The notes beneath the pieces were generated by a model. The model was not told where the DNA came from and did no database searches. It saw only the letters and a list, made by a program, of their open reading frames with translations. DNA of 64,000 bases, taken from Escherichia coli (GTDB taxonomy: Bacteria > Pseudomonadota > Gammaproteobacteria > Enterobacterales > Enterobacteriaceae). This document shows, piece by piece, positions 52,432-56,443 of the stretch (position 1 is its first letter; every line of letters begins with the position of its first letter). Made by a program: the position numbers and the translations under genes. The stretch lies in assembly GCF_001677475.2 (NCBI RefSeq), contig NZ_CP015229.1, one strand, 5' to 3'.

Positions 52432-53173
52432 TAAACAAGCCATTGCAGCGGCATTTGGTCGGGCAGCCTCACAGTATGAGCAACACGCAGAGTTACAGCG
52501 TCAGAGCGCCGATGCCTTGCTGGCAATGCTCCCGCAACGCAAATACGCCCGAGTGCTGGATGCTGGCTGTGGACCTGGCTGGATGAGCCGCCACTGGCGC
52601 GAGCGCAGCGAGCAGGTGATGGCGTTAGATCTCTCGCCGCCAATGCTTGCCCAGGCACGCCAGAAGGATGCCGCAGATCATTATCTGGCGGGGGATATCG
52701 AATCCCTGCCGTTAGCGACTGCGACGTTCGATCTTGCATGGAGCAATCTCGCGGTGCAGTGGTGCGGTAATTTATCCACGGCATTAGGTGAGCTTTGCCG
52801 CGTAGTACGCCCCGGCGGCGTAGTGGCGTTTACCACGCTGGCGCAGGGTTCGTTACCCGAACTGCATCAGGCGTGGCAAGCAGTAGACGAACGCCCCCAT
52901 GTCAATCGCTTTTTACCGTCAGCAGATATTGAACAGGCGCTAAAAGGTTTTCGTTATCAACATAATATGCAGCCTGTCACGCTGTGGTTTGATGATGCGC
53001 TCAGTGCCATGCGTTCGCTGAAAGGCATTGGCGCAACGCATCTTCACGCAGGGCGCGATCAGCGAGTATTAACCCGTTCACAGTTACAACAACTGCAACT
53101 GGCCTGGCCGCAACAACAGGGGCGATATCCTCTGACGTATCATCTTTTTTTGGGAGTGATTGCTCGTGAGTAA
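52418..53173 (+). CDS. bioC: Malonyl-ACP O-methyltransferase
   Basis: SAM-MTase motif VLDAGCGPG; start at [13 protein letters not shown] (251 aa). Confidence 0.95.
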
Positions 53174-53843
53174 ACGTTATTTTGTCACCGGAACGGATAC
53201 CGAAGTGGGGAAAACCGTCGCCAGTTGTGCACTTTTACAAGCCGCGAAGGCAGTAGGTTATCGGACGGCAGGTTATAAACCGGTCGCCTCTGGCAGCGAA
53301 AAGACCCCGGAAGGCTTACGTAATAGTGACGCGCTGGCGTTACAGCACAACAGCAGCCTGCAGCTAGATTACGCAACGGTAAATCCTTACACCTTCGCAG
53401 AACCCACCTCGCCGCACATCATCAGCGCGCAAGAGGGCAGGCCGATAGAATCATTGGTAATGAGCGCCGGATTACGCGCGCTTGAACAACAGGCTGACTG
53501 GGTGTTAGTGGAAGGTGCTGGCGGCTGGTTTACGCCGCTTTCTGACACTTTCACTTTCGCGGATTGGGTAACACAGGAACAACTGCCGGTAATACTGGTG
53601 GTTGGCGTGAAACTCGGCTGTATTAATCACGCGATGTTGACTGCGCAGGCAATACAACACGCCGGACTGACTCTGGCGGGTTGGGTGGCGAACGATGTCA
53701 CGCCTCCTGGAAAACGTCACGCTGAATATATGACCACGCTCACCCGCATGATTCCCGCGCCGCTGCTGGGAGAGATCCCCTGGCTTGCAGAAAATCCAGA
53801 AAATGCGGCAACCGGAAAGTACATAAACCTTGCCTTGTTGTAG
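53166..53843 (+). CDS. bioD: Dethiobiotin synthetase
   Basis: GTG start giving (M)[17 protein letters not shown]-loop; 225 aa; overlaps bioC 3' end. Confidence 0.95.
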
Positions 53844-54002
53844 CCATCCTGTATTTGGTTAAATTGCGAGCGAGATCGCGTCTTCGATTGACTGCAATTT
53901 AACCAATTAAATTCTAAAATAATCACGAAAAAAATTTTACTTCCGCCTCATGCGGCGAATGTGGGAATTGCCCAGGCGGCGGGGGATAGGGGCTGGAGAC
54001 AG

Positions 54003-54026
54003 TTATCCACTATTCCTGTGGATAAC
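54003..54026. promoter_or_regulatory. Inverted pair of DnaA-box-like 9-mers (ttatccact ... gtggataac) upstream of uvrB
   Basis: Read directly; a DnaA site in the uvrB control region is established knowledge, assignment to this exact pair is inferred. Confidence 0.45.
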
Positions 54027-54329
54027 CATGTGTATTAGAGTTAGAAAACACGAGGCAAGCGAGAGAATACGCGGCTTGCACGCGAATTGGCGTTAAAGAC
54101 GGCTCAAAGAAATATCTTTTATTTTTTAACTGGTTAGATAAATGCAATGGCAGTCACTGAACAGGCATCTCTTGCCATAAAACTGTCATCACTCATCTTG
54201 ACAAATGTTAAAAAAGCCGTTGCTTTGGGGATAACCCGGTAAGGCCGGAGTTTTATCTCGCCACAGAGTAAATTTTGCTCATGATTGACAGCGGAGTTTA
54301 CGCTGTAACAGAAATATTATGGTGATGAA

Positions 54330-54345
54330 CTGTTTTTTTATCCAG
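54330..54345 (+). promoter_or_regulatory. LexA (SOS) box of uvrB
   Basis: ctgtttttttatccag fits CTGT-N8-ACAG-type SOS box; uvrB is LexA-regulated. Confidence 0.8.
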
Positions 54346-54421
54346 TATAATTTGTTGGCATAATTAAGTACGACGAGTAAAATTACATACCTGCCCGCCC
54401 AACTCCTTCAGGTAGCGACTC

Positions 54422-56443
54422 ATGAGTAAACCGTTCAAACTGAATTCCGCTTTTAAACCTTCTGGCGATCAGCCAGAGGCGATTCGACGTCTCGAAGAGG
54501 GGCTGGAAGATGGCCTGGCGCACCAGACGTTACTTGGCGTGACTGGCTCCGGGAAAACCTTCACCATTGCCAATGTCATTGCTGACCTTCAGCGCCCAAC
54601 CATGGTACTTGCGCCCAACAAAACGCTGGCGGCCCAGCTGTATGGCGAAATGAAAGAGTTCTTCCCGGAAAACGCGGTGGAGTATTTCGTCTCCTACTAC
54701 GACTACTATCAGCCGGAAGCCTATGTACCGAGTTCCGACACCTTCATTGAGAAAGATGCCTCGGTTAACGAACATATTGAGCAGATGCGTTTATCCGCCA
54801 CCAAAGCGATGCTGGAGCGACGTGATGTGGTTGTAGTGGCGTCTGTTTCCGCGATTTATGGTCTGGGCGATCCTGATTTATATCTCAAGATGATGCTCCA
54901 TCTCACGGTCGGTATGATTATCGATCAGCGCGCGATTCTGCGCCGACTGGCGGAGCTGCAATACGCTCGTAATGATCAAGCATTCCAGCGTGGTACTTTC
55001 CGCGTTCGTGGCGAGGTGATAGATATCTTCCCGGCAGAATCGGATGACATTGCACTTCGCGTGGAACTGTTTGACGAGGAAGTGGAACGATTGTCGTTAT
55101 TTGACCCGCTGACCGGGCAGATTGTTTCCACTATTCCACGTTTTACCATCTACCCGAAAACGCACTACGTCACACCGCGCGAGCGCATCGTACAGGCGAT
55201 GGAGGAGATCAAAGAAGAACTGGCCGCCAGACGCAAAGTGCTGTTGGAAAACAACAAACTGCTGGAAGAGCAGCGGCTGACCCAGCGTACCCAGTTTGAT
55301 CTGGAGATGATGAACGAGCTGGGCTACTGTTCGGGGATTGAAAACTACTCGCGCTTCCTCTCCGGTCGTGGACCGGGTGAGCCACCGCCGACGCTGTTTG
55401 ATTACCTGCCTGCCGATGGGCTGCTGGTCGTCGATGAATCTCACGTCACCATTCCACAAATTGGCGGCATGTATCGCGGTGACCGGGCGCGTAAAGAGAC
55501 ACTGGTGGAGTACGGCTTCCGCCTGCCATCAGCGCTGGATAACCGTCCGCTTAAGTTTGAAGAGTTCGAAGCATTAGCGCCGCAAACCATCTATGTTTCG
55601 GCGACGCCGGGTAATTACGAGCTGGAAAAATCCGGCGGCGATGTGGTGGATCAGGTGGTGCGTCCAACCGGATTGCTTGACCCGATTATCGAAGTGCGGC
55701 CGGTGGCGACACAGGTTGATGATCTTCTTTCGGAGATTCGTCAGCGAGCGGCAATTAACGAACGCGTACTGGTCACCACACTGACCAAGCGGATGGCGGA
55801 AGATCTTACCGAATATCTCGAAGAACATGGCGAGCGCGTGCGTTATCTTCACTCAGATATCGACACCGTCGAACGTATGGAGATTATCCGCGACTTGCGT
55901 CTGGGTGAGTTCGACGTGCTGGTAGGGATCAACTTACTGCGCGAAGGTCTGGATATGCCGGAAGTGTCGCTGGTGGCGATCCTCGACGCTGACAAAGAAG
56001 GCTTCCTGCGTTCCGAACGTTCGTTGATCCAGACTATTGGTCGTGCGGCACGTAACGTTAACGGTAAAGCGATTCTCTACGGCGATAAGATCACCCCATC
56101 AATGGCGAAAGCGATTGGCGAAACCGAACGTCGCCGCGAGAAACAGCAGAAGTACAACGAGGAACACGGCATTACGCCGCAAGGCTTGAACAAGAAAGTG
56201 GTCGATATCCTGGCGCTGGGGCAGAACATCGCCAAAACCAAAGCGAAGGGCAGAGGAAAATCGCGCCCGATTGTTGAGCCGGATAATGTGCCGATGGATA
56301 TGTCGCCTAAAGCGCTGCAGCAGAAAATCTATGAACTGGAAGGGTTGATGATGAAACACGCGCAAAACCTGGAGTTCGAAGAGGCGGCGCAAATTCGTGA
56401 CCAGTTGCATCAGTTGCGTGAGCTGTTTATTGCGGCTTCGTGA
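54422..56443 (+). CDS. uvrB: Excinuclease ABC subunit B
   Basis: 673-aa helicase-like ORF with Walker A GVTGSGKT. Confidence 0.98.

Follow-up and report, generated by a model that had tools for sequence, protein, structure and literature searches.

The 578-bp interval at positions 53844–54421 of the window (by which we mean the whole stretch analysed, 64,000 nt of Escherichia coli contig NZ_CP015229.1, assembly GCF_001677475.2) is the bioD–uvrB intergenic gap of E. coli, as determined from the list of open reading frames and by genome matching. Its upstream boundary is bioD, the 3′ gene of the bio operon, an open reading frame on the plus strand (53160–53843) that is annotated as bioD in all E. 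coli matches and in K-12. Downstream, also on the plus strand, lies the uvrB coding sequence of 673 aa (54422–56443, with the ATG at 54422), assigned from the open reading frame and from annotation. Of the 5426 complete E. coli genomes, 5424 gave a match of 95–99.9% identity to an 801-bp query across the gap, and in every E. coli match the flanks were annotated as bioD and uvrB. The K-12 RefSeq annotation of the gap contains no gene and no RNA, in agreement with the earlier note, where some 580 bp ahead of uvrB had been described as non-coding. The same note had called the region partly AT-rich; indeed, the GC content is 34–36% in three stretches (53850–53949, 54100–54199 and 54250–54399) against ∼55% in the flanking genes.

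When compared with K-12 MG1655 in the region around 813 kb, positions 53844–54421 show two substitutions and no indels. Both single nucleotide differences, at window positions 53848 and 54308, are outside the DnaA boxes and outside any described site. As the interval matches the bioD–uvrB gap and differs from K-12 by these two nucleotides only, we are dealing with one of the best-studied E. coli intergenic regions. We are nearly certain that it holds two known systems in one interval: the DnaA-reactivating sequence DARS1 and the three-promoter uvrB cluster with its LexA operator. Neither DARS1 nor the uvrB promoters nor the LexA box is new; all are textbook-level features of E. coli. In what follows, the activities of promoters, the release of ADP and the binding of DnaA and LexA come from published experiments with the same sequence, while the identity of the locus, motifs, statistics and conservation were established here.

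The gap holds a cluster of three DnaA boxes. Box I, TTATCCACT, is on the plus strand at 54003–54011 and matches the consensus TTATNCACA in 8 of 9 positions; it corresponds to DnaA-box7 of Wurihan 2018 (PMC6015884). Box II, TTATCCACA, is on the minus strand at 54017–54025 with 9 of 9 matching positions (on the top strand it reads as the reverse complement, TGTGGATAA); this box, the DnaA-box6 that controls uvrBp3, is head-to-head with box I over a spacer of 5 bp. Box III, TAATACACA, again on the minus strand at 54029–54037 and with a score of 8/9, follows box II head-to-tail after 3 bp and corresponds to DnaA-box5. A head-to-head pair ttatccact/gtggataac matching the DnaA 9-mer had been proposed in the earlier note; the pair is real, with the second site placed 2 bp out of register. 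Its distance to the SOS box, given there as ∼330 bp, is close to the 303–327 bp that we measured upstream of the LexA box, while the two-site reading was incomplete, as the third box, TAATACACA, 3 bp past box II, had been missed.

The 64-kb window has a single perfect DnaA box, box II, and a single cluster of three boxes with at most one mismatch each within 40 bp, boxes I–III; the chance expectation for an inverted pair of the box I/II type with a 5-bp spacer is 0.01 per window of this size. The three boxes carry 1, 0 and 1 mismatches, and the spacers of 5 bp (I–II) and 3 bp (II–III) are those common to DARS1 and DARS2. The location, the E. coli bioD–uvrB intergenic region, is that of DARS1. 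The head-to-head pair together with the third box is the core of DARS1. According to published work, DnaA-box5-7 is DARS1 (PMC6015884), in DARS loci box I opposes boxes II and III (PMC6868365, PMC5742627), and DARS1 located upstream of uvrB is seen by DnaA ChIP-seq (PMC11317965). Sequence comparison showed no difference from K-12 DARS1 in any of the boxes. The K-12 element (bioD–uvrB, 17.5 min) thus has the same locus, boxes, orientation, spacing and flank, and the substitutions at 53848 and 54308 are the only differences.

The length of DARS1 has been stated as 101 bp, made up of the core and a flank of ∼50 bp that boosts the reaction in vitro (PMC5742627); alternatively, the flank has been given as the 42 bp after the last box (PMC4585315). 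In the window this flank corresponds to 54038–54079, and the literature puts the start of uvrBp3 where the flank begins or close by. Both this start site and the exact limits of the 101-bp DARS1 are inferred here from secondary sources. DARS1 is said to have been defined by Fujimitsu 2009, and p3 reportedly by van den Berg 1985. In an alignment of nine Enterobacterales, we observed within the flank the conserved islands GTTAGAAAAC and AAGCGAGAG..ACGCGGCTTG.

The second system is the control region of uvrB. We judged the LexA (SOS) box by pattern statistics, conservation and a published footprint. It has the sequence CTGTTTTTTTATCCAG on the plus strand at 54330–54345 and begins 92 bp ahead of the uvrB ATG, as the earlier note had anticipated with an SOS box ∼90 bp before the start. 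The surrounding 20-mer AACTGTTTTTTTATCCAGTA (54328–54347) is exactly as published (PMC6015884). The loose pattern CTGTN9CAG is not rare in itself, with 11 matches in the 64-kb window versus 5.95 expected; among the 11, only CTGTTTTTTTATCCAG has an A/T-rich spacer (9 of 10 positions A or T), and it is the sole exact match to CTG-W9-N-CAG in 64 kb. Positions 54330–54345 thus carry CTG-N10-CAG with the A/T-rich spacer characteristic of a LexA operator. Also, the operator overlaps the promoter of a DNA-damage gene: it abuts TATAAT and lies 10 bp before the −35 of p1, upstream of uvrB. The box is conserved at orthologous promoters, as CTGnnTnnnTATCCAGTA in all nine Enterobacterales and as CTGTATATATATACAG upstream of uvrB in Vibrio bivalvicida; neither the two Pasteurellaceae nor V. 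mexicanus have it upstream of uvrB. In published experiments this site, LexA-box1, falls between the −35 and the −10 element of uvrBp2 and was protected from DNase I at the lowest LexA concentration tested; mutation data for it are available from the same study (PMC6015884).

Three promoters have been assigned to this region. The −10 element of uvrBp2, a perfect TATAAT read from the sequence at 54346–54351 (plus strand), directly adjoins the LexA box; p2, whose −35 and −10 elements enclose this high-affinity operator, is SOS-inducible. Promoter uvrBp1, ∼30 bp downstream of p2, was detected by the consensus scan with a score of 10/12 at 54355–54383 (plus strand): its −35 TTGGCA (54355–54360) and −10 TAAAAT (54378–54383) are separated by 17 bp, and TGGCA and TAnAAT are conserved in Enterobacterales. 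At the threshold used, the consensus scan missed both p2 and p3, and a promoter scan of 53990–54050 showed no recognisable −35/−10 hexamers at 16–18 bp spacing for p3. We therefore took the positions of p2 and p3 from the literature and from the TATAAT that the sequence shows. The existence of p3 is documented by published transcription and fusion data; this promoter overlaps the three DARS1 boxes, where DnaA leaves footprints and represses p3 (PMC6015884). In the resulting scheme, p3 is a DnaA-repressed promoter, with weaker DnaA boxes located between p3 and p2. The earlier note had left room for additional promoters; an extra promoter does exist, already known as uvrBp3, and with LexA-box1 in p2, p1 after it and the mapped p3 overlapping DARS1 this room is accounted for. 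In comparison with the published cluster of uvrBp1, p2 and p3 with LexA-box1 (Sancar 1982; van den Berg 1985; Wurihan 2018), the sequence is identical and we found no difference. The reading of the gap as a uvrB control region was correct in that the region controls uvrB and both motifs are bound experimentally; what it overlooked is the DARS1 role.

To characterize conservation of the core we used 13 gammaproteobacterial uvrB upstream regions, from nine genera of Enterobacterales, two Pasteurellaceae and two Vibrio. The three-box arrangement, with 5 bp between boxes I and II and 3 bp between boxes II and III, precedes uvrB not only in E. coli but also in Citrobacter, Klebsiella, Erwinia, Tatumella, Yersinia, Serratia, Dickeya and Photorhabdus, and likewise in the two Pasteurellaceae and the two Vibrio species. 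The DARS1 core is conserved without gaps in all 13, with box II invariant; a gapless alignment was obtained with DARS2 of E. coli and with the core of seven other species, and six more genera showed the same spacing. Across species the core is located 300–472 bp before the uvrB start codon. The gene upstream of the core varies (bioD, an ABC-transporter gene and others), indicating that the core travels with uvrB rather than with bioD. We saw that Klebsiella, Erwinia, Yersinia, Serratia and Tatumella have a gene for an ABC-transporter ATPase upstream of uvrB on the minus strand, and that the non-coding gap before uvrB in these genera, 700–950 bp, is longer than in E. coli. With the thresholds used, the uvrB upstream regions of Shewanella, Pseudomonas, Vreelandella and more distant bacteria showed no such core.

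A scan of metagenomes with the pattern TATCCACN6TGTGGATAAN3TGT gave matches in at least 120 stretches. Among the stretches listed, seven had a UvrB match within 3 kb and only four had uvrB 419 bp away, as in E. coli; all four were close relatives of E. coli, so the scan added no new lineages with uvrB at this distance.

The best-established role of DARS1 is regeneration of ATP-DnaA for replication initiation, a role that goes beyond control of uvrB. In this mechanism boxes I, II and III (54003–54037) bind DnaA, and ADP-DnaA molecules on the opposed boxes I and II form a head-to-head pair stabilised by a third protomer on box III. Release of ADP follows, and the empty DnaA departs and rebinds ATP, so that more initiation-competent ATP-DnaA becomes available; the 42 bp downstream of box III are reported to enhance ADP release in vitro. 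These steps follow published observations: the protomers at boxes I and II interact head-to-head and release ADP, while the box III protomer gives support and releases none (PMC6868365). Release of ADP by ADP-DnaA and a raised cellular level of ATP-DnaA have been published for the identical K-12 sequence (PMC6868365, PMC4585315, PMC5742627). Upon deletion of DARS1 the number of origins per mass falls and there is a fitness cost, chiefly in the mouse gut (PMC4585315).

It could be argued that the box pair is a transcriptional operator only, through which DnaA represses uvrBp3 and couples repair to replication, with no part in the nucleotide cycle. Repression of p3 by DnaA is a fact, and a TG-to-CA change in the consensus box (box II) derepresses p3 5.9-fold (PMC6015884); moreover, the element accompanies uvrB, not bioD, in all 13 species examined. 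Still, this restricted reading has to confront the published ADP-release assays, ATP-DnaA levels and initiation phenotypes of DARS1 fragments and deletions. It is largely refuted by the observations that a DARS1 fragment of 70–101 bp dissociates ADP in vitro and that cells with DARS1 deleted have fewer origins per mass. DARS2 has its three boxes in the identical layout and spacing without being a uvrB promoter, which also speaks against it, and the operator and reactivation roles are not mutually exclusive. We consider it very unlikely that the boxes are an operator and nothing else.

Slightly less probable yet is that the space between p3 and p2 (∼54040–54320) encodes an independent small RNA or small protein, the former of which the earlier note had thought there was room for. 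Transcription from p3 covers some 290 bp before p2, islands at 54133–54150 and 54198–54234 are conserved, and small open reading frames of 31–48 aa are present. However, no Rfam family matched in the region even at E ≤ 10, and the K-12 annotation is empty there. The folds of 54040–54110 and 54215–54265 are no better than those of shuffled sequences (z = −0.4 and −0.5); the region thus shows neither a family match nor a fold better than shuffled with conserved structure. A permissive Rfam scan of 53000–55200 produced two chance matches, to a trypanosome snoRNA and to a microRNA (E = 0.4 and 2), far below the gathering scores. The islands are short and resemble protein-binding sites (a DnaA box, an IHF-like site). 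In the nine-genus alignment conservation is limited to such short islands, with unalignable, indel-rich sequence between them, a pattern that suggests binding sites for proteins rather than an RNA or a small open reading frame. Given that the results on Rfam, annotation, folding and conservation are all negative, we rejected the small-RNA suggestion.

Least credible of all is the idea that the palindrome at 54002–54026 is an RNA hairpin, a terminator or attenuator of read-through from the bio operon, with the match to DnaA boxes secondary: it is listed by a scan for terminator-like structures (a stem of nine pairs with a loop of 7), folds with −13.9 kcal/mol (z = −2.3) and keeps its arms across species while the loop varies, but its tail, CATGTGTATT, has no U-run, 7 of 200 shuffles fold equally well, the arms are invariant and equal to the DnaA consensus with no compensatory changes, box III is outside the hairpin and yet conserved at a fixed spacing, and the palindrome has a DnaA footprint (PMC6015884). 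The terminator-like match at 54002–54026 was accordingly set aside as the DnaA-box palindrome. Another terminator-like match, at 54236–54248 (CCGGTAAGGCCGG + AGTTTTATCT), was discarded as well: the enclosing 51 nt fold no better than shuffled sequences, the stem is missing from the predicted structure, and it is not conserved beyond Escherichia and Klebsiella.

One exception among otherwise unremarkable local folds is a long hairpin on the plus strand at 53855–53906, with perfect 11-bp arms GGTTAAATTGC / GCAATTTAACC and a folding energy of −20.9 kcal/mol (z = −3.5; none of 200 shuffles was as stable). It is located just past the bioD stop codon, has a U-tract on neither strand, and its right arm is not conserved in Citrobacter. 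This hairpin might stabilise or end the transcript of the bio operon.

Returning to DARS1, we observed further DnaA boxes downstream of the core. A low-affinity box TTTTTAACA is located on the minus strand at 54206–54214 (8/9; +203 from box I). It overlaps the island TTGACAAATGTTAAAA, and it is probably one of DnaA-box2-4 of Wurihan 2018 (PMC6015884). The island itself (54198–54213), conserved in Enterobacteriaceae and Erwiniaceae, includes a perfect −35 hexamer; no matching −10 was seen at 16–18 bp. A second minus-strand box, the distal box TTATCCCCA, is at 54226–54234 (8/9; +223 from box I). A third box-like site, TTTTGCTCA, on the plus strand at 54273–54281 (8/9), is not conserved and was seen in E. 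coli only. That weak DnaA boxes exist between p2 and p3 of E. coli had been listed already (PMC6015884, Wurihan 2018).

All 13 species have a minus-strand DnaA box with 0–1 mismatch at +203 to +225 from box I. In eight of the nine Enterobacterales genera TTATCCCCA is at +222 to +225, and Tatumella has TTATCCACT (1 mismatch) at +223. While the distance from the distal box to the uvrB start varies (−94 to −248), the distance to the core is fixed. A coincidence of this kind was reached in 0–1 of 2000 dinucleotide shuffles, with four independent lineages and all offsets considered and with the window width chosen post hoc.

Between the core and the distal box there is a predicted degenerate IHF-type site, TTTTAACTGGTTA, on the plus strand at 54124–54136 (+121 from box I); a conserved island, GTTAGATAAATGCAATGG, comes after it at 54133–54150. 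A site matching the strict consensus WATCARNNNNTTR after an A/T tract was predicted on the plus strand at +121/122 in Klebsiella, Serratia, Dickeya, Rodentibacter and Haemophilus. Four more genera deviate from the consensus by a single mismatch at this position, whereas E. coli and Citrobacter deviate by two. The E. coli sequence, with two mismatches at 54124–54136, thus does not conform to WATCARNNNNTTR with a preceding A/T tract, and in both Vibrio, with three mismatches at +121/122, no IHF site is recognisable there. The coincidence of positions across species was reached by no shuffle. We found no description of the conserved distances or of an IHF-type site at DARS1 in the open literature surveyed. 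According to published data, E. coli DARS1 needs no IHF, as it works in vitro without this protein and in an ihfB mutant.

The geometry of core, IHF-type site and distal box at DARS1 appears similar to that of DARS2, located upstream of mutH. Both loci have a three-box core with box I opposed to boxes II and III and with spacers of 5 and 3 bp, though the core boxes of DARS2 are each one mismatch off the consensus, whereas box II of DARS1 is perfect. A further consensus DnaA box is at +211 from box I in DARS2, to be compared with +203 and +223 in DARS1. At DARS2 our scan detected two IHF-like 13-mers, one at +93 and the other at +109; the 3 bp between them agree with what has been published for IBS1-2. 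Both IHF sites of DARS2 are functional, Fis sites are present too, and the locus needs both IHF and Fis, while DARS1 needs neither in vitro and, in contrast to these functional sites, its IHF-type site at +121 in E. coli has two mismatches. A second triple resembling a DARS core is located ∼315 bp from the DARS2 core, at K-12 positions 2,969,451–2,969,485, inside ygdT and upstream of mutH. It consists of TTATCCCAG, 5 bp, TGTGGATAA, 3 bp and GGTGTAAGA, with the DARS spacing kept, and coincides with the strongest ChIP-seq peak of DARS2 (PMC11317965).

Similarly to DARS1, datA and oriC have clusters of DnaA boxes and, between sub-clusters, a bend (IHF) site. They act, however, on ATP-DnaA, with ATP hydrolysis at datA and origin unwinding at oriC. 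Unlike boxes I and II of DARS1, the boxes of oriC are head-to-tail (PMC6868365); the head-to-head arrangement of boxes I and II is specific to DARS loci (PMC6868365, PMC5742627).

ChIP-seq data on DnaA give for the DARS1 region a 16-fold enrichment with the centre at 813,331, in a table whose coordinates are stated as NC_000913.2 (PMC11317965, Table 1). When checked against sequence, the DARS2 rows of this table fit positions of NC_000913.3. The oriC and nrdA rows presumably fit NC_000913.3 as well. On the basis of the DARS2 rows and, presumably, of the oriC rows, we placed the centre in NC_000913.3 despite the stated version; by our mapping it is window position 54227, which falls on the distal box, some 200 bp downstream of the core. 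In K-12 the core is at 813,107–813,141 and the stretch with the distal boxes at 813,310–813,338. Nothing contradicts the identification of the locus, though the offset of the published centre from the core is a point to be set against it. Anyone reusing Table 1 of PMC11317965 should beware of the difference between the assembly version stated and the one that fits.

Taken as a whole, the layout of an IHF-type site and a distal box at DARS1, read from sequence comparison, is a lead rather than a result. We tentatively suggest, while thinking it rather less than an even chance, that functional DARS1 may extend over ∼230 bp instead of the 101 bp used in vitro, with three parts each kept at a fixed distance from box I: 0 to +35 for the core, +121/122 for an IHF-type bend and +203 to +225 for a distal box oriented like boxes II and III. 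The three-part layout is kept in Enterobacterales and Pasteurellaceae, and the core with the distal box also in Vibrio.

DARS1 matters as an element that helps to set the timing of chromosome replication. If the extended layout is real, studies with the 101-bp DARS1 fragment may miss regulatory parts of the element, and the contrast between a ‘factor-independent’ DARS1 and an ‘IHF/Fis-dependent’ DARS2 may be specific to E. coli. In that case the DnaA signal at the locus in vivo may centre on the distal box, and a looped architecture would be ancestral to both DARS1 and DARS2. In many species DARS1 would be under control by IHF or looping, with the bend site having decayed in Escherichia and Citrobacter.
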